A stretch of DNA of 32,000 nt from contig JBILGV010000024.1 of the NCBI GenBank assembly GCA_044350865.1, forward strand, positions 1-32,000, given 5' to 3'. Positions 3,281 to 20,850 of the stretch are shown piece by piece. The stretch's first letter is position 1. Each line of letters opens with the position of its first letter. Both the position numbers and the translations under genes were made by a program. The notes beneath the pieces were generated by a model. That model did no database searches. It saw nothing but the letters and a program-made list of their open reading frames with translations, and was not told the DNA's origin. The DNA comes from Pseudanabaena sp. GTDB taxonomy: Bacteria; Cyanobacteriota; Cyanobacteriia; Pseudanabaenales; Pseudanabaenaceae.

Positions 3281-4522
3281 CTAGAAACTAGGACTATTGA
3301 GCAGTAAATCAGAATTTAAAGTCACTGCTAAGTCAGTATTTGGATTGACAGAAGAGAGGGTAACACTGTCACGTCCTAGAAACAGACCGAGTAGAGTGGC
3401 AATCCCTGCACCACCAAGGATTTCTTCAGTGGCAAGAGCGCGATCGCCAGTTACAGCCGAGATCGCGGCGGCGGCAGCAGCACCGAGAGCAGCATTCTGG
3501 ACTAGTTTGCCCACGCTGATACCCTTATCAACTCTCTCAGTTGTAGTCACCACCTTAGAAGTGCCATTAAGTGGCAGCCTTTGTCCATTCGCAAACACAA
3601 GTTCGCTAGCAAAGAACTGAGCGCCACCAGATACGGTTCTCAATTCTCCAGACACTTGCGTACCCGCAGGAATTAAAATTTGACCTTGAGCATTGGTAAT
3701 ATTTTGTGGCACTGTGAGAATCAAAGGTACTTTTTCATCAGGACCTAACAAGATCTTGTCCTTGGAATACTGCACGGCGATCGTATTACCTGCGGGAATT
3801 CTCACCTGATTTTGGACTGGGGGATTATTGGTTTGACCGACGATATAGGGTGAAGCGATCGCTGTCACCTGCCCCGATCGCACTAAGCCTTGATAGATAA
3901 ACGCGGCAACTTCGGCTCTAGTCGCGGTTTGGTTAGGATTTAGAAACTGGACATTAGGATAGTTAACGACCATCCGATTTTCTGTCGCCGCCGCCACACT
4001 ACTTCGCGCATAGTCAGGAATGCTTGCAGCATCTGCATAAGTCTGCAAAATTGTCTCAGGTGCTTGATTTGCAGTGTAATTCAGACCATTAGCAAGGGAT
4101 ACTAAAATCTGTACGCGGGGGATATTTTGAGCGGGTTCAAAAACATTGCCTGGATAACCTGCCATAAAGCCTGTTGTGTATGCTTTTTGAATTGCTGAAG
4201 CAGCCCAATAGTTCGGATCAACATCTACGAACGTGACAGCATTGCGAGTCGGAGCTTTAGTCATCGCTTTGTTCAACATCGCGGCAAACTGCGCTCTAGT
4301 TACGGGATCGTTAGGACGAAATCCACCATCAGGGAAGCCTTTGATAATGTCTCTGGATGCTAACTCTTGAATAAAAGTTTGCGCCCAATAGTTGGTCGGT
4401 ACATCATTAAAAGTTGTCTGAGCAAGGGCGGAGGCTATGCTGATGAAGGGAATTGCAGAGCTACCAATGAAGCTAACAGCGACAAGTAAAGCAGTAGTAG
4501 AACGTTGCGTTTGATTTGTCAT
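3281..4522 (-). CDS. S-layer homology (SLH) domain protein with signal peptide and a glycine/alanine-rich C-terminal hydrophobic segment
   Basis: Three SLH-like repeats (FNDVPTNYWAQTFIQELASRDIIKGFPDGGFRPNDPVTRAQFAAML; FVDVDPNYWAASAIQKAY; YADAASIPDYARSSVAAA). The N-terminus is a hydrophobic signal. Confidence 0.8.
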   Translation of the reverse strand: MTNQTQRSTTALLVAVSFIGSSAIPFISIASALAQTTFNDVPTNYWAQTFIQELASRDIIKGFPDGGFRPNDPVTRAQFAAMLNKAMTKAPTRNAVTFVDVDPNYWAASAIQKAYTTGFMAGYPGNVFEPAQNIPRVQILVSLANGLNYTANQAPETILQTYADAASIPDYARSSVAAATENRMVVNYPNVQFLNPNQTATRAEVAAFIYQGLVRSGQVTAIASPYIVGQTNNPPVQNQVRIPAGNTIAVQYSKDKILLGPDEKVPLILTVPQNITNAQGQILIPAGTQVSGELRTVSGGAQFFASELVFANGQRLPLNGTSKVVTTTERVDKGISVGKLVQNAALGAAAAAAISAVTGDRALATEEILGGAGIATLLGLFLGRDSVTLSSVNPNTDLAVTLNSDLLLNSPSF

Positions 4523-4651
4523 TTTTAAGATGTCTCCTATGCAAGGTCATGCATATTTGATGAATGACTGTATATTCAAAACAAATGTTCCTGAAATATT
4601 TTTGCGTAAAATACTAAAATACAGGAAAATATTTCATTTTTACAGCTTATA

Positions 4652-6132: not shown

Positions 6133-6756
6133 ATGATGAGCCAAGCCTTGCCTAAAGTTACAACCTTTGACGAGTTTGTGGAATTTCTTCCTGAAAATTC
6201 GGGCGTACGTTACGAACTACATAACGGAAATTTTACTAGAATAATTCAACCAGTTGGAGAACACGAAGAGTCTAAGGGCTTCTTGACCATAAAAATTGCT
6301 GTTGAAATCAAACGGGTACAACTTCCCTATGGTATTCCCAATCAAGTGATAGTTAGACCTGAAGGCAAAGATTCTGGATATTTTCCAGATATATTAGTGA
6401 TGAATCGTGCCAATCTGCCTAATGAACCGCGATGGAAAAAAGAATCGATTCTGAGTCAGGGAGCCTCCATTCCTTTAGCGATCGAAATTGTATCCACTAA
6501 CTGGCGGGATGATTATCATTTGAAATTTGCTGATTATGAAGAGATGGGAATTGCGGAATATTGGCTTGTGGATTATGCAGCTTTGGGAGGACGCAACTTC
6601 ATTGGTAATCCTAAACAACCGACTATATCAGTTTGTAATTTGCTGGATGGAGAATATCAAATTAGCAAATTTCGAGATAGCGATCGCCTAATCTCACAAA
6701 CTTTCCCTAACCTAAATCTCACCGCAAATCAAATTTTTCAAGCTGGCGTAGTTTAA
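6133..6756 (+). CDS. Uma2-family (DUF820) PD-(D/E)XK endonuclease
   Basis: FDEFVEFLPENSGVRYELHNG..., PDILVM..., LAIEIVSTNWRDDY...KFADYEEMGIAEYWLVD follow the typical Uma2 pattern (D...E-x-K-like core). Confidence 0.8.
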   Translation: MMSQALPKVTTFDEFVEFLPENSGVRYELHNGNFTRIIQPVGEHEESKGFLTIKIAVEIKRVQLPYGIPNQVIVRPEGKDSGYFPDILVMNRANLPNEPRWKKESILSQGASIPLAIEIVSTNWRDDYHLKFADYEEMGIAEYWLVDYAALGGRNFIGNPKQPTISVCNLLDGEYQISKFRDSDRLISQTFPNLNLTANQIFQAGVV

Positions 6757-6779: not shown

Positions 6780-7760
6780 ATGTTTTATCCTCGTCTTAGC
6801 GGCGATCGCTATATCAACCCACTTACAGATTTTGGCTTCAAGCGCCTATTTGGAACCGAGCCGAACAAAAACCTGTTGATTGATTTTCTGAATGTAATCT
6901 TACCAACCCAACATCGGGTCAAAGATCTCACCTATCGCAGTACTGAAAACCTTGGCAATACGCCCCTTGATCGCAAGGCAGTCTTTGATCTTTACTGTCA
7001 AAGCGAAAAGGGCGAGAAATTCATTGTCGAAATGCAAAAGGCTAAACATAATTATTTTAAAGATCGCAGCATTTACTACGCATCTTTTCCCATTCAAGAC
7101 CAAGCAGAAAAAGGAGATTGGAACTACAAACTTGATCCAGTTTATACCATCGGCATTTTAGACTTTGTTTTTGATGAAGATAAAAACGATGACACTCTCT
7201 TACATATCGTTGAACTCAAAGATCAAAATTGCAAAGTTTTCTACGAAAAGCTGAAATTTATTTATCTGGAATTACCAAAATTCAAAAAAACAATCGATCA
7301 ACTAAACGACCATTTTGACAAGTGGTTGTTTTTGCTGAAACATCTACCCGATTTAGAAGAACCGCCTTTACCATTGCAAGAAAACGTATTTATGCAACTA
7401 TTTGAAGTTGCCCGAATTACGAACTTTTCTCCAGATGAACGGGAAGCCTATGAAAACAGCTTAAAGTATTATCGAGACATGAATGGTGTCATTGAAACAG
7501 CAAGAGAAGAAGGGAAAGTTCAAGGTATTCAAGAGGGTAAGGCTCAAGGTATTCAAGAGGGGAAGGCTCAAGGTGTGCAAGAGGGGAAAAGCTCTCTTTT
7601 GCTAAAACTGCTTTCTCGCAAACTAGGAACCATATCTGATGAAATTAAAGTTCTGTTGCACGAGTTATCGTCAGAACGATTAGATGTTTTGAGTGAAGCT
7701 TTGTTTGAATTAGAAAGCTTGGCAGATTTACACAATTGGCTCGAAAATATTAACAACTAG
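6780..7760 (+). CDS. Rpn-family recombination-promoting nuclease / PD-(D/E)XK putative transposase
   Basis: N-terminal YINPLTDFGFKRLFG...NKNLLIDFLNVIL, DLYCQSEKGEKFIVEMQ, and a C-terminal EGKxQGxQ repeat followed by an LLL..L helix are typical of this family. Confidence 0.8.
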   Translation: MFYPRLSGDRYINPLTDFGFKRLFGTEPNKNLLIDFLNVILPTQHRVKDLTYRSTENLGNTPLDRKAVFDLYCQSEKGEKFIVEMQKAKHNYFKDRSIYYASFPIQDQAEKGDWNYKLDPVYTIGILDFVFDEDKNDDTLLHIVELKDQNCKVFYEKLKFIYLELPKFKKTIDQLNDHFDKWLFLLKHLPDLEEPPLPLQENVFMQLFEVARITNFSPDEREAYENSLKYYRDMNGVIETAREEGKVQGIQEGKAQGIQEGKAQGVQEGKSSLLLKLLSRKLGTISDEIKVLLHELSSERLDVLSEALFELESLADLHNWLENINN

Positions 7761-8171: not shown

Positions 8172-11100
8172 TCACAGAACGGCGCGATCGGGAATCGCGA
8201 TCGTAAAGCAACTCCCCAGCCCTAATTCACTGGTTAATCTGACTTCGCCGCCATGCAGTTCCACCAAGCGCTTAACGAGAGCTAAGCCCAATCCCGAACC
8301 TTCGTAGTTACGATTGAGGGCGCTCTCCACCTGTACAAATGGTTGAAACAGTCGTTTGATTTGCTCTGGTGCAATCCCAATTCCAGTATCAATGACGCTT
8401 ATCTCTAGGGTGTCACAGGGCATAACACCAACATTGGCGATCGCGGCATTATCCAGAACCTTTATGTAGCTTACCTGTAGGGTGATTTTGCCACCGTTTG
8501 GTGTGAATTTGACGGCATTATTGAGCAGATTAATCAGCACTTGCCGAATGCGCCGTTCGTCAAGGGTGATAGTGGGCAGGTGAGCAGGAATCTCTGTCTC
8601 CACTTGAATATTTTTGCTGAAGGCTTGTTGCTTAATAAAGATTAAACTCGATTGACAAAGGGTTTCGACATTACAAGGTTGACAAGATAGCTTAATTTGC
8701 CCTGCTTCGACTTTCGCTACATCGAGAATATCGTTAATCAATTCCAGTAGGTGATTGCCGCTTTTCTCAATCGTTTGGAGAGATTGTAGTTGTCGATCAT
8801 TTAAATCACCAAAAATCTGTTCCTGAAGAATTTCCGTCATGCCTAAAATAGCGTTGAGCGGGGTGCGTAATTCATGGCTCATATTGGCTAGAAATTCATC
8901 TTTGAGGCGAGTTGCTTTGATCAGTTCTTCATTAGTGTGTTGCAGTTGTGCTTCTGTCTGTTTGCGATCGGTAATATCAATGTTTAAACCAATCGTCCTT
9001 AAAATTTCACCTTGGGCATTGTATTGGTTGAAGGCATAGGAATCAATAAAGCGGATTGTGCCATCAGGGCGAATAATCCGAAATTCGACACGACATTCTT
9101 TATCGCCTTGATAGGCTTGTTGTTCAGCCTGCTGCACCCAATCTAGATCATCGGGATGAATGCGCTGGAGCCAATCCTCATATTTACCAGAAAACTCCTC
9201 TGATGAAATTCCATAAAGGCTAAACATGCGCTCATCCCACAGCAAGCGCCCTTCATGTATTTGCCATTCCCAAATGCCAATATTGGCTCCTTTCAGGGCA
9301 AATTCCAGACGACCTGATAGATCTTGAAGCGCAAGTTCGGCGTTTTTGCGATCGGTAATATCGGTCAGCGTGCCGATATAGCTAACTACGTTGCCATCAT
9401 TATCGAATTCCTTCGCCACTTGGATATAACACCACGTTGTAGTACCGTCTGGACGGAGATGCCGACCTTCGCTGCCATGAATGATCTGCCTCTCAGGATT
9501 CGCATGGGCGTAGTATTCAGTCCATTCGGCAAGGCGTTGCTCGCTGTCTTCGGGATGTAATCCTTCCATCCAACCACGGCCCAAGGCTGATTCCATCGGT
9601 CGCCCACTTAGTTCACTCCATCGCTCATTGACATAGACACAGTTGAGTGGCTCATCAAAACGGAAAATACCGACTGGAGCCGCCGCCGCGAGACTGGCAT
9701 AGCGTCGCTCACTTGCCTTTAACGATAGCTCCAGCATTTTAAGATCGGTAATATCCGCCGCAATTCCCACCGTTCCCGCAATGTTTAGCCAATCGTCCCG
9801 AAAGGGGGTTTTGGTTGTTTCGAGCCACCCCAAAGTGCCATCAGCCCTTGCGATTTTCTCCACAACAACTTTGCGTTGACCAGATTGTAAGACCTCGGCA
9901 TCATCGTCACGATAGGCTTGAGCCAAGTCCGCCGACCAAATATCAAAATCCGTTTTGCCCACTAATTCTTCCGCCGAAACGCCGCAGGCTTGGACAAAGG
10001 GGGTATTTACTGAAATAAATCGATTTTGTTCATCCTTAATCCAAGCGATGTGGGGAATATTATTTAGCAGGGCGGCGAGGTGATTTTGTTGGAGAATTAG
10101 AGCTTTTTCAGCAGCTTTGCGATCGCTAATATCTCTCATTATGGTCGAGAAACTTTCAACTATACCGCTAGGTGATTTATGAGCAATAATCACTTGGGAG
10201 ACGGGGATTTCTTTGCCTGTGCCATCTAGCAGCGCCAATTCTCCAGACCAACTACCCTTCTCAATTGCTGTGGGTAGAGCCTGTTCAAATATAATTTTAT
10301 TTACCCAGTCAGGATGACATTCCGAAACAAACCGATGCTCTTCACCATTATCCAGTTCGGGACGTAATTCTTTGAGGTGCCTGTTGTGCCACAAAATTTC
10401 ACCTTGAGCATTAGCTATGCCAATATAATCAGGGGTTGATTCAAGTATTGCCGTAAGTCTTATTTGCGCTTGTTCAAATTTTTTGCGATCGCTGATATCT
10501 TGGTAAGTCCCTAACACACCAATTACATCACCTTGCAGATTGCGGAGGGGTAGCTTATTGGTTTCCACCCAAATAATCTGTCCATTGGCTTGATGTTGAG
10601 TTTCCACAATCCCCAGTTTGGCAGTTTGACGCTCGATCACCGCCCGATCATCGGCTTGGTAAACATCGGCTTCCGTCTCTCTCCAAGGCATTTCATAATC
10701 CGTCTTGCCAATAATTTCCGCGATCGTTTGAAGCCCTGCATCTTTCAGAAAATTCTGGTTACAGCCCAAATACACTGAATTGACATCTTTCCAGAACACC
10801 GAAAGGGGAAACGTATCCAGTACAGTCTGCAAAAATTGTTCCCGTTCTTGTAGTTCCTGTGTTCGCACCTGCACCCGATTTTCCAGTTGGTGATTTAGTT
10901 GCTGCAAAAATTGTACGGCTCTCTCTCTCTCGATCGCAATACCTGCAATATTGGCAGCCTGAGCGAGCCAATCTAGCTCCTGCGCTTGAGGTGCTTTCTG
11001 CTCGCGATAATAAATACCAAACGCGCCTAATAAAGAGCGATCGCTGGCAAAAATCGGTATGGACGAACAGGCTTGTAAGCCATAGGTCAGGGCAAAGTGT

Positions 11101-13603: not shown

Positions 13604-15121
13604 CTAAATTAACTCTTCGGTGACAATCCTACGCAAAATTTCCGCGACCGTAGCAGCCATTATGACATCAATTTCTAAAGCTTCGCGATCAGGATTTTTG
13701 AGATCGAGAACAGCGCGAAGGGTCATATTCACAGAACGGAGTTTTGGTAATGGTTGATCATGAGTCTCAGCAAGGCGATCGACAAATTGAATACAGGCTG
13801 TATAGGTCAATTCTGTACATTTACGCTGATCACTATAGCCAAATCCCATTTTGGAAATCACCACGGGATCACCGATGAAATATTGTAAACCCAAAGCGGC
13901 GATCGCTGCATCTACATATCTCGCTGTATCCTGCCCCATTGAGACAATCAAGGTGCTTAAGCTATGCCATTGCGCCGCAGGTAGGCGATCGCTTGGTGGT
14001 ATATGGCGATGCCAAGATATTTGAGAAATAATTCTGGTGAGATCGTAAGCCGAAATAAAATTATCGCCACGATGAGGTTCTTTAGAAAATTCAAAAATCG
14101 GATTGCCAACCGAGTCAAGCAATAGCGGCTTTTCGATAAATGGCTTTTCGCCGTAACGTCCTTGAAAAGTGAGAGATTGATTACCAGTGATTCCTTTTAA
14201 CCAATTTTGTAACTCTAGGGGTGTCGTAAACTGCTTAAACATAGCTGCTAAAGCATTGGAAGACATGCCATCAGATTCATCGTAATCACACATGCGTTGA
14301 GCCATCGCCGCAAATGTGCGATATGAGCGTGTATTTTGAGAGTCAGCAATTATGCAGGAGGAGATCGCTTGATTCGGTTTAGATTGGTTTGCCTTACAAA
14401 TGGTATGTAACAATGGCAATATTTTCGTGGAACTCCAAAACTGGACATTTCGCAAAGGATTTCGACCAATCCAACGGGTCAACATTTGCCCATTCACCAC
14501 GCTACCGATACAAACACAGGCTTCTTGGATGTTGCTACTGAGAAACTCCAAGCCAATATTTTCGATATTGGGAATTTGCCCAAGTCTTGGGTAGGGACGA
14601 AAGCGCACCCGCACTTGCGAGCCTCTTAACATGGCAACTTCACCATAGGAAACGACATTTACACCATCAGGCAAACTGGCGAGGCGATCGGGATAGGTTT
14701 GAATATGGCTGACAAATGGCGATGGTGCAAAGTTACGACTGGGCAGGCTATTCATTTTTCCTGCAATACAACCATTAAATCCGCGATCGAGAAAGCCTAA
14801 ATGATTTTCATCAGCTTGCCCCATATTCACGAATATGCGCTGAGCATTCATAAATTTCTGGTATAGGCGATCGCCATCTCCTGTAATTTGCTGTAAATGC
14901 CTAACCACCGCAGGGCTTTGCAAAAGATTATTTGTAATTGCTTGAGAGGTAGCATCCAAGATCGTATCAAGGCTAAGAGCATTGGCAAACTGAGCAAAAG
15001 CAATTTCGGTTAATTTGCCATAGAGGCCGTCAACTTCACCATCGTATAGCCCTAAACGCTGCAAACCTGTCTGAGCTTGGGTTAATTCCTCTCCCAAAAG
15101 CTTTACCTCTATTACCGCCAT
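13604..15121 (-). CDS. Hypothetical protein: N-terminal peptidoglycan-binding-like domain plus possible serine beta-lactamase/DD-peptidase-like domain
   Basis: LQRLGLYDGEVDGLYGKLTEIAFAQF fits PG_binding_1. Candidate SxxK (S230-S-T-K233), SxN (S287-S-N289) and KxG (K424-M-G) motifs lie in class-A-like order. The second domain is inferred from motifs only. Confidence 0.45.
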   Translation of the reverse strand: MAVIEVKLLGEELTQAQTGLQRLGLYDGEVDGLYGKLTEIAFAQFANALSLDTILDATSQAITNNLLQSPAVVRHLQQITGDGDRLYQKFMNAQRIFVNMGQADENHLGFLDRGFNGCIAGKMNSLPSRNFAPSPFVSHIQTYPDRLASLPDGVNVVSYGEVAMLRGSQVRVRFRPYPRLGQIPNIENIGLEFLSSNIQEACVCIGSVVNGQMLTRWIGRNPLRNVQFWSSTKILPLLHTICKANQSKPNQAISSCIIADSQNTRSYRTFAAMAQRMCDYDESDGMSSNALAAMFKQFTTPLELQNWLKGITGNQSLTFQGRYGEKPFIEKPLLLDSVGNPIFEFSKEPHRGDNFISAYDLTRIISQISWHRHIPPSDRLPAAQWHSLSTLIVSMGQDTARYVDAAIAALGLQYFIGDPVVISKMGFGYSDQRKCTELTYTACIQFVDRLAETHDQPLPKLRSVNMTLRAVLDLKNPDREALEIDVIMAATVAEILRRIVTEELI

Positions 15122-15661: not shown

Positions 15662-15700
15662 AACTGAATTTTAAGAATATTTATTGTTTATTTGTTTGTA

Positions 15701-15746
15701 TTTTACAGGTAGGCGATCGCGCATAACCTTAACGATTCAGTCCATT
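15701..15746 (-). repeat. Relic copy of the cobS 3' end (direct repeat X), marking the distal boundary of the inserted cassette
   Basis: 40/46 nt identical to 17668-17713. On the minus strand it encodes WTESLRLCAIAYL-stop, against the cobS C-terminus WTETLSLCAIAYL-stop. The DUF4276-like ORF ends (TGA, 15737-15739) inside it in another frame. Confidence 0.85.
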
Positions 15747-16474
15747 ACATCAACTGCTTTTACCGCGCTCATTAGATTTTGAGTAAAGACTGCATATCCA
15801 CTTGGGCAATGAGTTTTTATAACTGCTAAATCTATGTCATGAGCCAAATTCCAGCGAATCTGTAGTGGGCGTTGATTGCTGGTATTCTCGTCAAGATAGG
15901 TGGATTGGGCGATCGCGCTTTCTAAAATTTCTTTTGAATTTTCTAAATCTTCTAAGTTTTCCAGCTTTTCAATCTCTACACCTAAAATCCCTGAAACAGT
16001 CTGAGTATCGGCAAGTAACCATGTTTCAAAATTTCTAATCGCTAATCCACCCGCACTGCGATCGCTAATTTCCTGTTCATCAGCATCTAAATGATTACTA
16101 CGAATTTTAGCTAAAGCAAGTTCTAAATCACGCTGTCTCTTAGGCAAAATGTCATCAGCATCAGCCACAATCAAAATCATATCGACCTCTTCAGGTTTCC
16201 ACGCGATGACCACTTGGGCGAGATATTTTGGCTGTAAAATTGAGTGTCCAGTACCCCGCGTAAAAAGCCCACTTTCATGATTTGTAGGATGTCGTTGCAC
16301 AAAGTCACAATCTAAACCAATACCTTGAATTTCTCGTCTAATCAGCGTATGCAAAGCACCTTCTTTACCTCTTTCAATAACTTTGCCACCATCTTCTGGG
16401 TTGATGTATGGAATACTTGCACCGAGTTCTGCTTCACCTTCAGCAATTAGTCCAATCCGAATCCGACGATTCAT
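15737..16474 (-). CDS. DUF4276-like protein with Toprim-type acidic motifs (putative nuclease subunit)
   Basis: 245 aa. RIGLIAEGEAE (aa 6-16), ILIVADADD (aa 100-108) and IRNFETWLLAD (aa 146-156) match the EGxxE / DxD / E-x-W-L-L-A-D pattern I recall for DUF4276. ATGA overlap with the upstream ATPase gene. Confidence 0.65.
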   Translation of the reverse strand: MNRRIRIGLIAEGEAELGASIPYINPEDGGKVIERGKEGALHTLIRREIQGIGLDCDFVQRHPTNHESGLFTRGTGHSILQPKYLAQVVIAWKPEEVDMILIVADADDILPKRQRDLELALAKIRSNHLDADEQEISDRSAGGLAIRNFETWLLADTQTVSGILGVEIEKLENLEDLENSKEILESAIAQSTYLDENTSNQRPLQIRWNLAHDIDLAVIKTHCPSGYAVFTQNLMSAVKAVDVMD

Positions 16475-17661
16475 GCAGGATTGCCTCCAAACTGGTTAGT
16501 AAACCAAAGCTCACCGAGAGAGCCATCATAGGCTTCGAGAGCTTTTTGAAAACGCACAGAATCTGTGGGTAAATTATGGACTTGGGTTTTACCTTCATTG
16601 TCAAGCTCTACAGCGCGAACTTGGTGCGGCTCGACATAATTTAGTAATACTGGTGAATGGGTTGTAATCAATACCTGAACTGGCTTACCTGTAATCCCTT
16701 CTGTGGAAACAAGTTTTAATAGCTCTATCATTTTATGTAATAACCAAGGATGCACACCATTTTCAATTTCTTCAAAGCAAATAATACTTGGAGTATCTTC
16801 TTGGTATAACGCTGTTAGAAAAGCTAAAATTCTTAATGTCCCATCAGATATATCAGAAGCAGGAATAGGCGTTTCCGAATATTTATCAATTAACTGCAAT
16901 GAAAAAGTTTGATCTTTACCACGCAGTAATGAGATTCTTTGAATATTAGGAACTAGTAATCTTAGACGTTCTTCTAACTCATCAAAACTTTTACGATTAC
17001 TAAATAAAATGTCGGCTAAAGCATAAGAAATCCCCTCTCCTGTTCTTTCCATGTTGCTAAATGATTGCACTTCGTCAGACAAACTTAACGGTGCGAAATC
17101 ATAAATACAAATCTTACGCAGGGCGCTAGCTATGGGAGAAGATTGATAATTATTAGAAACCAAAAATGTTCTTAAGGGTTCTGTCCATTTATCTGAACAA
17201 CGAATGTCAACGGCTATATTGTCAGAACCAACTAGGGCATTTTGAAAAGTATCTATGCTAAAGCTTTGCTGATGATAGTTAAAACTTGCTACAAGTTCAG
17301 AAAATCTTGGTAAATCAATATTTTTTTCTAATGTCGTGCTGATCATAAAGCAAATATGATCTAGACTTCCATGCCAAAACTTAGACTCAATATTCCGTTG
17401 TTTTTTACTTATGCTTTCTAATGATTGAGAGAAAAAATCTTTGACTAGATTATTACTCGATATGTTTATCAGCCTTTGTAAACAATTAGAAAATACAAAT
17501 AGCGATTCACAAATATTTGATTTCCCAGAGCCATTTGGTCCTATGAAAACTGTTAGTGGTTGGAGATCGATTTCGGTATCAAAGAGGCTCTTATAGTGTT
17601 GAACTTTGAGTTTAGTTAACATCTGTTTGGTGGTTGAGGTCAAATATTGAATTAGAGTCAT
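16471..17661 (-). CDS. ABC/SMC-type AAA_21-like ATPase (partner of the DUF4276-like protein)
   Basis: Walker A GPNGSGKS (aa 41-48, nt 17518-17541), signature-like SDGTLR (272-277), Walker B IICFEE (293-298), NGVHP, and H-loop TTHSP (333-337). About 220 aa is inserted between Walker A and the signature, as in RecF/OLD/AriA-type ATPases. The ATG lies 8 nt after the cobS stop. Confidence 0.8.
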   Translation of the reverse strand: MTLIQYLTSTTKQMLTKLKVQHYKSLFDTEIDLQPLTVFIGPNGSGKSNICESLFVFSNCLQRLINISSNNLVKDFFSQSLESISKKQRNIESKFWHGSLDHICFMISTTLEKNIDLPRFSELVASFNYHQQSFSIDTFQNALVGSDNIAVDIRCSDKWTEPLRTFLVSNNYQSSPIASALRKICIYDFAPLSLSDEVQSFSNMERTGEGISYALADILFSNRKSFDELEERLRLLVPNIQRISLLRGKDQTFSLQLIDKYSETPIPASDISDGTLRILAFLTALYQEDTPSIICFEEIENGVHPWLLHKMIELLKLVSTEGITGKPVQVLITTHSPVLLNYVEPHQVRAVELDNEGKTQVHNLPTDSVRFQKALEAYDGSLGELWFTNQFGGNPA

Positions 17662-17667
17662 ACTTTA

Positions 17668-17713
17668 TTTTACAGGTAAGCGATCGCACATAAACTTAGC
17701 GTCTCAGTCCATT
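17668..17713 (-). repeat. Direct repeat Y: the functional 3' end of cobS (proximal boundary of the cassette)
   Basis: Pairs with 15701-15746 (40/46 identical; 4 of the 6 differences are synonymous in the cobS frame). Confidence 0.85.
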
Positions 17714-18422
17714 CGACGATCGCCCCGTAAGTATCACCAGTCTGTCCACCAAGTTGACGGTTAAACCAAGCACCGATGAGCCATGCCAAGCTAAAACCAA
17801 TTACCGTTAAGCCAATCCCTAAATAAAGTGAGTTGTAAACATAGGCGATCGCCAAATTACCCATCGTTAACAAGATCGCCACTAGCCACACTTGCCAATG
17901 ATGCAAATCCTCTTGATGAAATTTGCCCTTACCGATCGCCTTGAGATAGGGATAAGCCATAATTGCCCGTAACTGTCCCCACCTTGCCCATGCCCAAACG
18001 CTAGTCAAAATCCAAAAACGATGATCTTTAATCGCAGCGAGAGCGACAACTTTTAATAACAAAATCACAATTCCTGCGATCGCCCCGAAAGCACCTGTAT
18101 TACTATCCGCCATCACCTCAAGGCGGCGATTCGGATCGGTGACAGCCAGACCATCGGCGGTATCCATTGCCCCATCAAGATGCAAACCACCTGTGATTAA
18201 TAAGCCTAATAAAATCGTGACGAGCGATCGCAGATAAATAAATTCTGATGCAGGTTTAATGAGTCCTAAAGCAAAGTCCAGAGAAGCGATCGCGCTACCG
18301 ATGAAAATACCGATCAAGGGAGCATAGAGAGCAATTCCTCGAAAATCTAATGTTCCTTGAGGGCGCAGAGGCAAACAAGTATAAAAAATTAGTGCTGCTT
18401 GAAATTTTCGCCAATGATACAT
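17670..18422 (-). CDS. cobS: Adenosylcobinamide-GDP ribazoletransferase (cobalamin synthase)
   Basis: FYTCLPL near the N-terminus, GGLHLDGAMDTADGL, and a polytopic membrane profile of 250 aa are typical CobS features. Confidence 0.9.
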   Translation of the reverse strand: MYHWRKFQAALIFYTCLPLRPQGTLDFRGIALYAPLIGIFIGSAIASLDFALGLIKPASEFIYLRSLVTILLGLLITGGLHLDGAMDTADGLAVTDPNRRLEVMADSNTGAFGAIAGIVILLLKVVALAAIKDHRFWILTSVWAWARWGQLRAIMAYPYLKAIGKGKFHQEDLHHWQVWLVAILLTMGNLAIAYVYNSLYLGIGLTVIGFSLAWLIGAWFNRQLGGQTGDTYGAIVEWTETLSLCAIAYL

Positions 18423-18519
18423 TTAAGTAGAGAGAATAAAGCACTATTTTCACTTTATTATGTGTTCAAATGACCATAGGATAGAGCATTGATGCTGATA
18501 TTAAAATGCTTTGTAGACT

Positions 18520-19806
18520 ATGGGAAATCAACGACCGATCGCTGTGGATTTATTTGCAGGTGTTGGGGGAATGACATTGGGGTTTGAACAAGCAGGGTTT
18601 GATGTACTTGCCTCTGTGGAGATTGACCCCATTCATTGTGCTACCCATGAATATAATTTTCCAATGTGGAAGGTGATTTGTGCCAGTGTTACAGACATAT
18701 CAGGCAAAGAGATTCGTAAAAAATCACAAATAGGCGATCGCGAAGTTGATGTCGTTTTTGGGGGACCACCTTGCCAAGGTTTTTCGCTAATGGGGAAACG
18801 CGCCTTTGACGATCCACGCAATCAATTGGTATCGCATTTTATGCGTTTGGTCAAAGAACTCAACGCTAAGTATTTTGTGATGGAAAATGTCAAAGGTTTA
18901 ACAATCGGCAATCATCGACAATTTTTAGATGAAGTGATTGAGAATTTTAAAGAAAAGGGCTATGACATTCTCAGCCCTTACGAAATTCTTGATGCTTCTT
19001 ATTTTGGTGTCCCTCAACATCGCGAAAGATTATTTTTGATCGGGTGTCGTCAAGGTTTATCGCTTCCCAGTTATCCATTACCAATTACCAAACCAGCCAA
19101 AGCCAAACGTATTGACAAGAAGTTTTCTAATTTATCTGATAGTCCAACTGTGAAAGATGCAATTTCGGACTTGCCAGATATTTCTCAATATCATGAGTTG
19201 ATGAGTCTAGATTATTGTTTGACAGAGCTAGGAAATCCTAGTAAATATGTAGAACTAATTAATAGTTTTACTTCGTCTAATTTTGGTTATAAGCGAAAAT
19301 ATACTAAAGATATCCTTACATCTAGTCTTAGAACGAAACATAAAGACTCATCAATTAAGCGTTTTAAGGAAACATCTCAAGGACAAGTAGAAACCATTAG
19401 TAGATTCTACAAGTTGGATTTAGATGGAATTAGCAATACACTTAGAGCAGGTACACCTAGTAATAGAGGTGCTTTTACATCTCCTCGTCCCATACATCCT
19501 ACTATTCCAAGATGTATTACAGTTAGGGAGGCTGCAAGATTACACAGCTATCCTGATTGGTTTCGTTTTCATAAAACAATCTGGCATGGATTTCGGCAAA
19601 TTGGCAATTCAGTCCCTCCTTTGCTTGCTAGATCCGTAGCTGCTGAAATTATTAGAGGTCTTGACGTAAAACCTTTTATTTCGCGTAAGTTAATTAAATT
19701 GGGAGAAGAGAATTTATTAACCATGAATATGACCGAAGCTGCACAACGGTTTGGAGTTAGTCCAAAAGTTATTGAGCCGAGGCGTAGAAGCACTTTAGGC
19801 GACTAA
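18520..19806 (+). CDS. dcm: DNA (cytosine-5)-methyltransferase
   Basis: Motif I DLFAGVGG, motif IV GGPPCQGFS, motif VI ENV, motif VIII QHRERLF, and motif X GNSVPP, with a variable target-recognition region between VIII and IX. Confidence 0.92.
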   Translation: MGNQRPIAVDLFAGVGGMTLGFEQAGFDVLASVEIDPIHCATHEYNFPMWKVICASVTDISGKEIRKKSQIGDREVDVVFGGPPCQGFSLMGKRAFDDPRNQLVSHFMRLVKELNAKYFVMENVKGLTIGNHRQFLDEVIENFKEKGYDILSPYEILDASYFGVPQHRERLFLIGCRQGLSLPSYPLPITKPAKAKRIDKKFSNLSDSPTVKDAISDLPDISQYHELMSLDYCLTELGNPSKYVELINSFTSSNFGYKRKYTKDILTSSLRTKHKDSSIKRFKETSQGQVETISRFYKLDLDGISNTLRAGTPSNRGAFTSPRPIHPTIPRCITVREAARLHSYPDWFRFHKTIWHGFRQIGNSVPPLLARSVAAEIIRGLDVKPFISRKLIKLGEENLLTMNMTEAAQRFGVSPKVIEPRRRSTLGD

Positions 19807-20255
19807 AAATAAATATCTTCCTTATCCCAAAAGTGAGTAATTGAACGTGGCAATTGAGATGTAATGACTTTTATACCTGAATTTATAAGGTCAGAGTTGA
19901 GAATACGAATAATTTCTCGAACTCCTGCGGCTATTAGCTTACAGTCTCTGGCATTTATATCAGCACTAGTTTTATCCTTGCCATCGATTTCAATTGCTAC
20001 TATTTCTTTACCAGTCCAAAACAGAAAATCAACTTTGATCATTGTGTTAGGTGTACCATCAAAATCAGCAAATGGATCTGATAAGTAAAGATGAGCTTGT
20101 GGTATCGGCAATATAAAATCTGCCCAATGAAGCAATGGATTGGATACATATGGATTGGATGCATTTTGACGATTGATCATACTTTTACAATGCTCAAAAT
20201 ATAGATCAAGAAAACCCTTTTCATACTCACTTTGTAATTCTGAATTTTCTCTCAA
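19803..20255 (-). CDS. Small PD-(D/E)XK nuclease, DUF559/Vsr-like (candidate mismatch or restriction endonuclease partner of the m5C methyltransferase)
   Basis: KVDFLFWTGKEIVAIEIDGKDK...ARDCKLIAAGVREIIRILNSDL matches the D-F...hhhE-h-D-G...RD..L...G..hhR pattern of DUF559-type endonucleases. Its stop codon overlaps the dcm stop codon (convergent, 4-nt overlap). The start is uncertain: TTG at 20255, first ATG at 20180. Confidence 0.55.
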   Translation of the reverse strand: MRENSELQSEYEKGFLDLYFEHCKSMINRQNASNPYVSNPLLHWADFILPIPQAHLYLSDPFADFDGTPNTMIKVDFLFWTGKEIVAIEIDGKDKTSADINARDCKLIAAGVREIIRILNSDLINSGIKVITSQLPRSITHFWDKEDIYF

Positions 20256-20276
20256 ATATTTTCCAATGACAGATAA

Positions 20277-20759
20277 GGAGCCGAAGCCCCCGACTGGTTC
20301 TATGTGCCTAATGTCTCACCACTTCTAGATGGAGAATATCGGCGTTCCTACGTTTTGTGGAAAGAATTTGTCGCGCCTTTAATAGCGATCGAGTTTGTAT
20401 CTGGCAGTGGCAAAGAAGAAGGAGATGCCACGCCGCCTAGTGAGTCCGAAAAGGCAAGTAAATTCTGGGTGTATGAACAAGCAATTCGTATTCCTTTTTA
20501 TGCCATTTTTGATACATGGAAAGATAGCCTTGAACTATATCACTTAATTGACGGTCGCTATACCAAGATGCAGCCTAACGATCACGGTCATTACTCTATT
20601 CCGCCGATGGGTGTGGAATTGGGATTGAAATTTGAGAATGGTGTGGCTTGGTTACGCTGGTGGGATGATGCGGGAAATTTGTTGCTGACTGATGACGAGA
20701 GGGCGGAGAAATTGGCTAATTATTTGCGATCGCTGGGCATTAATCCTGATGAAATTTGA
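20277..20759 (+). pseudogene. Uma2-family endonuclease, 5'-truncated
   Basis: The in-frame open region starts just after a stop at 20274-20276 and reads GAEAPDWFYVPNVSPLLDGEYRRSYVLWKE...IAIEFVSGS...FYAIFD...ERAEKLANYLRSLGINPDEI. This corresponds to the middle and C-terminal parts of long-form cyanobacterial Uma2 proteins. The usual N-terminal segment (I estimate 60-100 aa) is absent, and only a GTG (20304) is available as a start. Confidence 0.6.
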
Positions 20760-20850
20760 TCGGGCGATCGCGCTCAGATCATCCAGTTAAAAAAATTCAA
20801 GCTAGATTGGTTAAGATAGAGAAAATATTTTTATATAAAAACTTTAGAGC

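Follow-up and report, generated by a model that had tools for sequence, protein, structure and literature searches.

How does a two-gene cassette come to lie directly behind a housekeeping gene, at the same place in many genomes, where no recombinase is found that could have moved it? The question is raised by a 32,000-nt stretch of Pseudanabaena sp. (contig JBILGV010000024.1, positions 1 to 32,000; hereafter the window), in which a 1.9-kb gene pair, encoding an ABC-type ATPase and a DUF4276 protein, follows the vitamin B12 gene cobS and is bracketed by two diverged copies of the cobS 3′ end. Small anti-phage systems are mostly patchily distributed, many of them outside recognisable mobile elements, and their movement is an open practical question, for which this candidate two-gene system offers a concrete and testable case. 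About 45 Pseudanabaena-type cobS loci were gathered from genomes and metagenomes, and extra loci were added through the DUF4276 protein. At the level of assembled sequence, their comparison shows the cassette to be an insertion/deletion polymorphism at the cobS 3′ end, with matching empty sites in several backgrounds; it also shows the working cobS terminus to be cassette-borne and the second copy to be a relic, the displaced terminus of the host. The best account of this arrangement, with a probability of roughly 0.6, is homology-driven (Campbell-like) insertion and loss through the carried cobS end, with a founding joint at an AATGGA microhomology. The evidence consists of static assemblies throughout. 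The genes at issue are all on the minus strand of the window, and the comparison loci (L001 and so on) are oriented with cobS on the plus strand.

A second copy of the cobS 3′ end

Four features define the repeat:

17670 to 18422, minus strand: cobS (cobalamin-5-phosphate synthase), the target and left homology arm; Pfam CobS, E = 6e-48
17666 to 17713, minus strand: proximal repeat copy, holding the working last 13 cobS codons, the stop and 4 nt, from junction comparison
15699 to 15746, minus strand: distal repeat copy, a displaced non-coding relic of the cobS 3′ end, from junction comparison
15713 to 15720, no strand assigned: octamer GCGATCGC of the highly iterated palindrome HIP1 in the distal copy, with its partner at 17680 to 17687 in the proximal copy

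The two copies form a direct repeat of 48 nt with 42/48 identical positions. The sequence-only reading had described a 46-nt version (17668–17713 against 15701–15746, 40/46 identical), which is borne out and extended by two bases. In the cobS frame the copies read WTETLSLCAIAYL and WTESLRLCAIAYL, and the six differences comprise four synonymous and two non-synonymous changes, as that reading had counted. The synonymous share of possible single changes in the repeat codons is 24%, which gives P = 0.03 for at least four of six. The spacing of 1921 nt between the copies and the location of the DUF4276 stop (15737–15739) inside the distal copy are likewise as described, and cobS itself remains intact beside the repeats, as judged from its Pfam match.

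The repeat stands well above the background of the window. A degenerate 48-mer with at most three mismatches finds exactly two sites in the window and none in 100 shuffles, and the local alignment score of the repeat is 33, against 12–14 for control strands and regions. Each copy contains one HIP1 octamer, the sole palindrome in the repeat (8 nt), of which the window holds 56; chance matches centred on HIP1 reach 13–15 nt at most. A dispersed repeat unrelated to cobS had been named as an outcome that would overturn the interpretation, and the window instead holds just the two copies, both in cobS-end register. An assembly artefact, another such outcome, is excluded because five independently assembled contigs from other samples (metagenome assemblies) carry the identical two 48-mers at equal spacing. 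Samples with the window's strain include ERZ28782689, ERZ28593802 and SRR27421204.

Across about 25 Pseudanabaena cobS loci scored for a second cobS end, a signal above background is confined to cassette-bearing loci (window 33, L008 24, L010 17; controls 8.5–16.5). No cassette-free locus in this set has a second copy above control, only HIP1-centred matches of 9–16 nt. No consensus promoter or terminator site is found at either copy on the coding strand. As alternative targets, tRNA genes and known RNA families were considered, and none is found in the window.

Occupied and empty sites

The expectation that the same cassette occupies the same place elsewhere holds in L001 (truncated), L008, L010, L025, L094, L096, L111, L175 and L180–L184. 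Occupancy is probable in L179, whose contig begins inside the ATPase gene, and L081 and L169–L172 have an extra gene between cobS and the ATPase gene. The genes downstream of cobS vary by species, with 85 neighbouring-ORF (open reading frame) clusters in 36 loci, and the distal flanks of the cassette fall into at least five different lineage-specific neighbourhoods. Presence and absence of the cassette alternate within both clades of hosts, A and B. When contigs encoding an identical DUF4276 protein were collected as a test for recent transfer, all lay in the window's own context.

Two features of the distal flank matter for the empty sites:

15662 to 15698, minus strand: spacer from the relic to the tautomerase start, homologous to the empty-site cobS–tautomerase spacer in an alignment with L007, L090 and L179
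15272 to 15661, minus strand: tautomerase gene, the neighbour of cobS in empty sites of the window lineage; Pfam Tautomerase_2, E = 1e-23

If the cassette had inserted, cobS should elsewhere be followed directly by the tautomerase gene, and this predicted junction exists in L007 and L090, where the tautomerase gene begins about 30 nt after cobS and the spacer is homologous to the sequence past the distal copy in the window. The tautomerase flank thus pairs occupied sites (window, L008, L179) with empty ones (L007, L090). In clade B, occupied L175 and L010 pair with empty L019: the L175 relic and more than 100 nt downstream of it match the cobS end and flank of L019 at 92% identity. The single gene end of an empty site aligns to both repeat copies, as seen for L090 (903–953) and for L019 (8712–8746, against both L175 copies). 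A third pairing, type C, sets L025, L111 and L169 against empty L091 and L092, with 2199 nt in place of 58 nt and no relic. The loci therefore do not present the opposite picture, in which all relatives are occupied without empty sites or repeats: empty sites occur in three backgrounds.

L090 is not a plain empty site, having another cobS-end copy past its tautomerase gene. At L090 978–1422, the tautomerase 3′ end is fused to a 27-nt DUF4276 tail and a second, nearly intact cobS end, and an unrelated DUF1565 gene comes next. Between its two cobS ends L090 has a different cargo (tautomerase), and this slot may be one that exchanges cargo.

Several side observations concern altered sites. L001 contains a decayed cassette (8765–8956), in which unrelated genes take over after the leader and ~65 initial ATPase codons; in L021 only 28 nt of a leader variant are left after cobS (8754–8782). 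An insert of about 90–107 nt resembling a miniature inverted-repeat transposable element (MITE), with terminal inverted repeats TAATTAAAyGTAGGAT, sits at the proximal joint, exactly after 'cobS-TAA AATAAAGTAAG', in L010 (4191–4297), and likewise in L025 and L111. The extra gene (L081 4046–4831, L169 3016–3807) encodes 261–263 aa and is present in P. yagii and in one metagenome population. It shows no sign of being a recombinase and has no Pfam, PADLOC or NCBIfam match. The 3′ end of this extra gene and the two-gene leader are homologous, so that the two-gene version may have arisen by deletion from the one with the extra gene. In L023 (8001–8939) cobS seems to hold an internal partial duplication, with residues 132–185 present twice, and the start of the L007 contig (1–228) has an inverted copy of the cobS 5′ end that is probably an assembly artefact.

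Origin of the two gene ends

Between its two joints the cassette consists of the following parts:

17623 to 17669, minus strand: cassette leader AATAAAGTATGACTCTAATTCAATATTTGACC..., from the cobS stop to the conserved ATPase start, conserved in the window, L001, L008, L094, L096 and L175
16471 to 17661, minus strand: ABC-type ATPase ORF, HEC-01A-like; Pfam AAA_21 1.3e-31 and AAA_15 9e-25, PADLOC HEC-01A 9e-47
15737 to 16474, minus strand: DUF4276 / TOPRIM-like partner, HEC-01B-like; PADLOC HEC-01B 7e-10, Pfam DUF4276 6e-5

The proximal joint is the same in every two-gene occupied genome, whether of clade A or B: the cobS stop is followed by AATAAAGTAGGA..., in the general form stop, then AATAAAGTA(G/A/T)GA.TCTAATT.AATATTTGACC. 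Hosts of clades A and B have this joint, 'TAA AATAAAGTAGGAyTCTAATTyAATATTTGACC', in common despite distinct native post-stop sequences, and it is therefore the cassette that brings the functional gene end with it. The native clade-B end is seen in L019 as ...ATATTTG AGT TAG TCTTATGG, with the post-stop sequence AGTTAGTCTTATGG. In L175 and L010 this native end and its flank lie distal to the cassette, and the functional cobS ends with the cassette-type TAA AATAAAGTA. The proposal of a surrogate gene end supplied by the cassette finds its support in this displacement. The leader AATAAAGTATGACTCTAATTCAATATTTGACC... is also kept behind the MITE-like insert in L010, L025 and L111, and a variant of it precedes the ATPase gene in L173, a locus away from cobS. 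No promoter- or terminator-like site is found in the leader (17623–17669, minus strand).

At the distal joint, GTAATGGA is followed by CTGA..., in a constant register at the DUF4276 stop in five relic types:

Type A: the window, L008 and L179
Type B: L010 and L175
Type D: L176
Type E: L177 and L178
Fifth type: L090

The flanks beyond the relics differ by type and consist of a tautomerase gene, an OpuAC-type gene, an ABC transporter, a DAO oxidoreductase and a DUF1565 gene. The relic-free, natural end of the DUF4276 gene is ...GTAATGGAATAA in L025, L111 and L169, with the C-terminus ...AV[DE]VM[EDG]*, and Dolichospermum homologues end similarly (...KAVLMG). The first relic bases, AATGGA (15741–15746), are at the same time this natural gene end. 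Because the relic-free ends match, AATGGA belongs to the cassette itself and forms a genuine microhomology with cobS GAATGGACTGA. The idea that L025 retains the 'natural' 3′ flank and that illegitimate events occurred repeatedly and independently was dropped, the joint register being the same in all relic types.

Mosaic repeats and crossover points

In two loci the relic is a mosaic. Compared with L019, the L175 relic has 7/23 differences in its left part and 4/48 in its right part plus flank (P = 0.03); compared with L007, the L179 relic has 8/23 and 4/53, respectively (P = 0.005). In L175 the foreign-looking left part and the local right part meet at or beside HIP1, and L179 agrees as far as it can be resolved. 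In the proximal copy of L175, read from left to right, host-like sequence gives way to cassette-like sequence at HIP1, and the distal copy shows the reverse, which is exactly what a single reciprocal crossover would give. The sequence-only reading had held that both copies descend from functional cobS ends of different lineages. This is supported by the left half of the type-A relic, which is of the GCGTTAAGTTTATGC allele type found in L013 and in relic E and is neither the allele of the nearest empty-site relatives nor a product of random decay.

Other loci seem to place the switch elsewhere. In types D and E and in L090 the relic looks like an almost undamaged native end, host-like over its whole length, and the left halves of the type A and B relics are diverged. 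The proximal copy of L010 keeps the host-type ATATTTG to the right of HIP1, and the split in L173 lies 15–16 nt to the left of HIP1. The crossover points thus apparently vary, arguing for general homologous recombination over a fixed core.

Gene comparisons agree with movement between hosts. The cobS of L175 belongs to clade B (91–92% identical to L010 and L025), and its DUF4276 gene is 87–89% identical to that of L010/L025 and 88% to that of the window; the cassette and host trees therefore disagree.

L173 (3800–3860, 5730–5750) carries the cassette behind an SLH gene, the orthologue of window 3281–4522, and not behind cobS. The right part of a cobS end lies on the 5′ side of the cassette and the left part (GGATTGAG) on the 3′ side, and the two pieces tile one cobS end to within 0–2 nt. 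Such tiling hints at a circle opened at one point. An empty counterpart of the L173 location is not available from the window, whose orthologous SLH locus aligns no further than the gene. A MITE-like element of about 270 nt with ends CCCACATTCCGCTC lies just upstream of the L173 cassette.

Search for mobility genes

No integrase or transposase is found among the ORFs of at least 120 aa scanned in the 32-kb window. In other genomes, none of the 20 nearest distinct neighbour genes of cobS encodes an integrase, a search that covered these neighbourhoods and not whole genomes; the neighbours are housekeeping genes, for example those for PGK, FtsY, RecQ, AspRS, a photolyase and transporters. In IMG/VR, neither a protein relative nor a match to the proximal-joint pattern is found. 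As for a transposon, insertion sequence or MITE with target-site duplication, no inverted repeat pairs the cassette ends and no transposase is encoded in the cassette; a target-site duplication, identical at birth, is ruled out as the copies derive from different cobS alleles. An integron gene cassette is rejected as well: the window has no integrase, the repeat is a coding gene end, and its only palindrome is the HIP1 octamer.

The description of the repeats as attL/attR-like (attachment sites left and right) therefore stands for the anatomy and not for a site-specific event. With no recombinase found and variable crossover positions, the event is more likely homologous than site-specific.

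Proposed route of insertion and loss

In the proposed mechanism, the 1.9-kb unit would be placed at the cobS 3′ end together with its own cobS terminus, consisting of the last codons, the stop and the AATAAAGTA leader. The carried terminus would then end the working cobS, and the host terminus would be pushed to the far side as a relic fused to the DUF4276 stop. Movement would occur by ordinary homologous recombination, the most likely route because no recombinase is encoded in or near the unit. Both homology arms would come from cobS, with the gene itself as the left arm and either the relic or the carried end as the right one, and insertion would therefore be possible in any Pseudanabaena genome, whatever lies downstream of cobS. 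A looped-out circle could enter by one Campbell-type crossover, or linear DNA taken up by transformation could enter by two; the cassette could be lost by recombination between the two repeats. Cassette and relic were probably first joined in a single illegitimate event, at the AATGGA that the DUF4276 end has in common with cobS.

Several points weigh against this homology-driven account. No circular form, excision product or transfer event is directly observed in these static assemblies. An arm of 48 nt at ~85–90% identity is short for recombination of the RecA type. The left parts of the relics differ by type and share no derived changes, and variable crossover points, heteroduplex repair or gene conversion are therefore needed. 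The type C loci have no relic, and not every occupied site fits a simple Campbell product; these loci and L090 are only partly explained. The breakpoint statistics rest on ~25–50 nt per class, the L173 argument rests on one locus with a boundary uncertain by 2–4 nt, and uptake of linear DNA presumes natural competence of these Pseudanabaena strains. One old insertion, followed by many rearrangements and precise losses, could give the same data.

A bolder form of the homology-driven account is possible but doubtful: the cassette would be an enzyme-free mobile unit with a portable set of the last 13 codons, looping out as a circle through the resident gene end and re-entering any genome of the genus. 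In that form the palindromic HIP1 octamer within the repeat may be a preferred crossover site, and the locus would represent an undescribed general route for small defence cassettes in polyploid, transformable cyanobacteria.

If movement by homology only is true, defence cassettes could hitch-hike on a conserved gene, island finders keyed on integrases or tRNA genes would miss them, and the locus would offer a naturally occurring blueprint for inserting DNA behind cobS in cyanobacteria without a marker. If a recombinase acts in trans instead, the 48-nt site defines its target.

Such a recombinase is the strongest rival, though an unlikely one. The repeats would be attL and attR of a decayed element, and an integrase encoded elsewhere, by a helper element or a phage, would recognise the 3′-end core of cobS and act through a circular intermediate. 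This would account for precise direct repeats in which the 3′ end of a conserved gene is doubled without damage to the gene, for the same two cassette joints in every relic-bearing background and for the existence of empty sites; the cobS-end sequence of L173, split at one point, resembles an opened circle. Moreover, cis-mobilizable elements (CIMEs) are by definition remnants flanked by attachment sites and devoid of recombination genes, often at gene 3′ ends. However, no integrase is found in the window, no integrase-bearing element is found behind cobS in 20 distinct neighbourhoods or in the other inspected loci, and the cassette is not found in viral contigs. The crossovers also differ in position, at HIP1 in L175 and L179, further right in the proximal copy of L010 and far left in types D and E, and described CIMEs stand in tandem with a helper integrative and conjugative element (ICE) or integrative and mobilizable element (IME), a tandem that is not seen here.

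Quite unlikely is a purely vertical history, in which one ancient illegitimate insertion at AATGGA was followed by descent, the 'empty' sites arose by simple deletion and there is no present-day mobility. The single common joint at each cassette end and the microhomology agree with it, and the divergence of the cassette (83–95% nucleotide identity) is in the range of that of cobS (81–92%). Synteny generally breaks downstream of cobS in this genus, as the 85 ORF clusters in 36 loci attest, and decayed cassettes exist (truncated in L001, a leader remnant in L021). Yet the right parts of the relics and their flanks match the cobS ends of the host lineage (L175 equals L019; the ends TTTTTTA and ATATTTG of D and E resemble those of other lineages), so that recombination inside the relic is required and not mere decay. 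The relics of D, E and L090 are nearly intact while the left halves of A and B have diverged, proximal ends in clade-B hosts carry a clade-A-type post-stop sequence, and occupied and cassette-free loci are interspersed within each clade. The lineage-specific relic ends and the incongruence of cassette and host trees make a vertical history with repeated precise losses less likely than homology-driven insertion and loss.

A structure without biological meaning, whether a HIP1-centred coincidence, a family of dispersed repeats or an artefact of assembly, draws on the presence in the repeat of the hyper-abundant HIP1 octamer. It is refuted by the 42/48 identity with no match in shuffled sequence, by the two copies in cobS-end register, by the five identical assemblies and by the retention of the repeat in relatives, where L008 and L179 have it at the orthologous position and L010, L175, L176 and L177 have other forms of it.

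Comparison with known systems

In anatomy the locus is closest to a CIME. CIMEs are decayed ICEs or IMEs whose movement depends on the integrase of a tandemly integrated helper. Like CIMEs and other islands at gene 3′ ends (fda, rpsI, rpmG and tRNA genes in streptococci), the cobS cassette has a cargo without recombination or transfer genes, direct repeats that duplicate the 3′ end of an intact conserved gene, and empty sites in relatives. Unlike them, it has no helper, integrase or tandem element at cobS in the genomes examined, its crossovers look variable and the unit is just two genes long. The feature not found in these genomes, a helper integrase, is the one that defines a CIME.

The minimal mobile elements of Neisseria likewise combine a small variable gene set with a fixed chromosomal position and no mobility genes, and they are exchanged through homologous recombination in conserved flanking DNA. 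For the cobS cassette, mosaic relics and tree incongruence point to recombination in the flanks. The Neisseria elements lie between two conserved flanking genes, whereas the cobS cassette has one conserved flank, cobS, and carries the second arm itself as a 48-nt copy of the cobS end, which gives the direct repeat.

Campbell-type 'ends-in' integration of a circle leaves the insert between direct repeats, each a reciprocal hybrid of the incoming and resident copies. The repeats of L175 are such reciprocal hybrids. The difference is that the cobS cassette is a natural one with only ~48 nt of homology, and its circle is a proposed one.

Homology-facilitated illegitimate recombination, reportedly described by de Vries and Wackernagel in 2002 in naturally transformable bacteria, combines a one-sided homologous anchor with a second joint at short microhomology; it normally deletes recipient DNA and makes no duplication. 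The cobS anchor with the AATGGA joint resembles it, as does the type C pair, in which foreign DNA replaces 58 nt. The fusion of tautomerase and DUF4276 tail in L090 looks like another event of this kind. The common joint in many backgrounds, however, argues for one founding event followed by homologous spread and not for repeated illegitimate events.

The cargo

The 1.9-kb pair is a candidate anti-phage system of the HEC-01 type, which would be a new member of the HEC-01 / OLD-like class. Besides HEC-01A, seven further PADLOC HEC-01A models match the ATPase at 1e-34 or better, and both AAA_21 and AAA_15 are above gathering. The Pfam DUF4276 match of the partner is weak (23.8 bits, below the gathering score of 30.2). 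Like HEC-01 and the OLD- and PARIS-like pairs of ABC ATPase and TOPRIM protein, the cargo consists of two genes, an AAA_21/AAA_15 ATPase and a DUF4276 TOPRIM-like protein, which here overlap by 4 nt. HEC-01 is defined as embedded in Hma systems, and its published representative gave no protection in Escherichia coli assays. The cobS pair, unlike HEC-01 in Hma systems, is free-standing behind a housekeeping gene, and its defence role is that of a candidate.

The ATPase probably starts at the ATG at 17620–17622, 47 nt past the cobS stop, and has 383 aa. The ATG 8 nt after the stop, which the sequence-only reading had taken as the start, is not conserved (AAG or AGG in L001, L008 and L175); the Pfam match covers the ORF only from residue 14 on, and the 383-aa product is the one predicted by gene callers.

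The cassette is AT-richer than its surroundings, with a GC content of 35% in the ATPase gene against 42% in the window. The DUF4276 protein has 314 homologues, mostly cyanobacterial. In other genera (Dolichospermum, Tumidithrix, Planktothrix) homologues of the cassette occur at unrelated places, and the ATPase/DUF4276 pair has therefore moved horizontally. Around the cassettes of Dolichospermum, Tumidithrix and P. yagii, a search for a flanking gene-end duplication yields no flanking repeat. In Planktothrix agardhii (L087, L088) the cassette and a downstream 76-aa ORF lie between 70-nt hairpin-rich direct repeats (TCAAGAAACCGGGTTTCT..., 4538–4607 and 7153–7222). This repeat looks like a dispersed small repeat and not a gene end.

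The middle of the ATPase gene (window 16900–17330) is hypervariable between cassettes, with 72–77% amino acid identity where DUF4276 has 90–95%. In the comparison with L025, a stretch of the ATPase gene at 14678–14893 of the reverse-complemented window has no nucleotide alignment at all. A hypervariable ATPase centre is typical of a diversifying sensor region.

Neighbouring genes

Across Pseudanabaena cobS adjoins an S41 protease gene, the two being mostly divergent neighbours about 160 nt apart. In the window, 18423–20850 lies between them and contains three further genes:

18520 to 19806, plus strand: type II 5-methylcytosine (m5C) DNA methyltransferase, also present in L001, L008 and L090
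19803 to 20255, minus strand: convergent ORF of 150 aa without a family match, possibly the cognate nuclease of the methyltransferase
20304 to 20759, plus strand: Uma2-family gene

With these inserts between the S41 protease gene and cobS, accessory inserts therefore flank cobS on both sides. Elsewhere in the window, an ORF at 253–1353 has a C-terminal specificity domain of Type ISP restriction enzymes, a PIN-domain ORF lies at 1575–2024, a second Uma2 gene at 6133–6756, and a PDDEXK_2 'transposase'-family nuclease with DUF4351 at 6780–7760.

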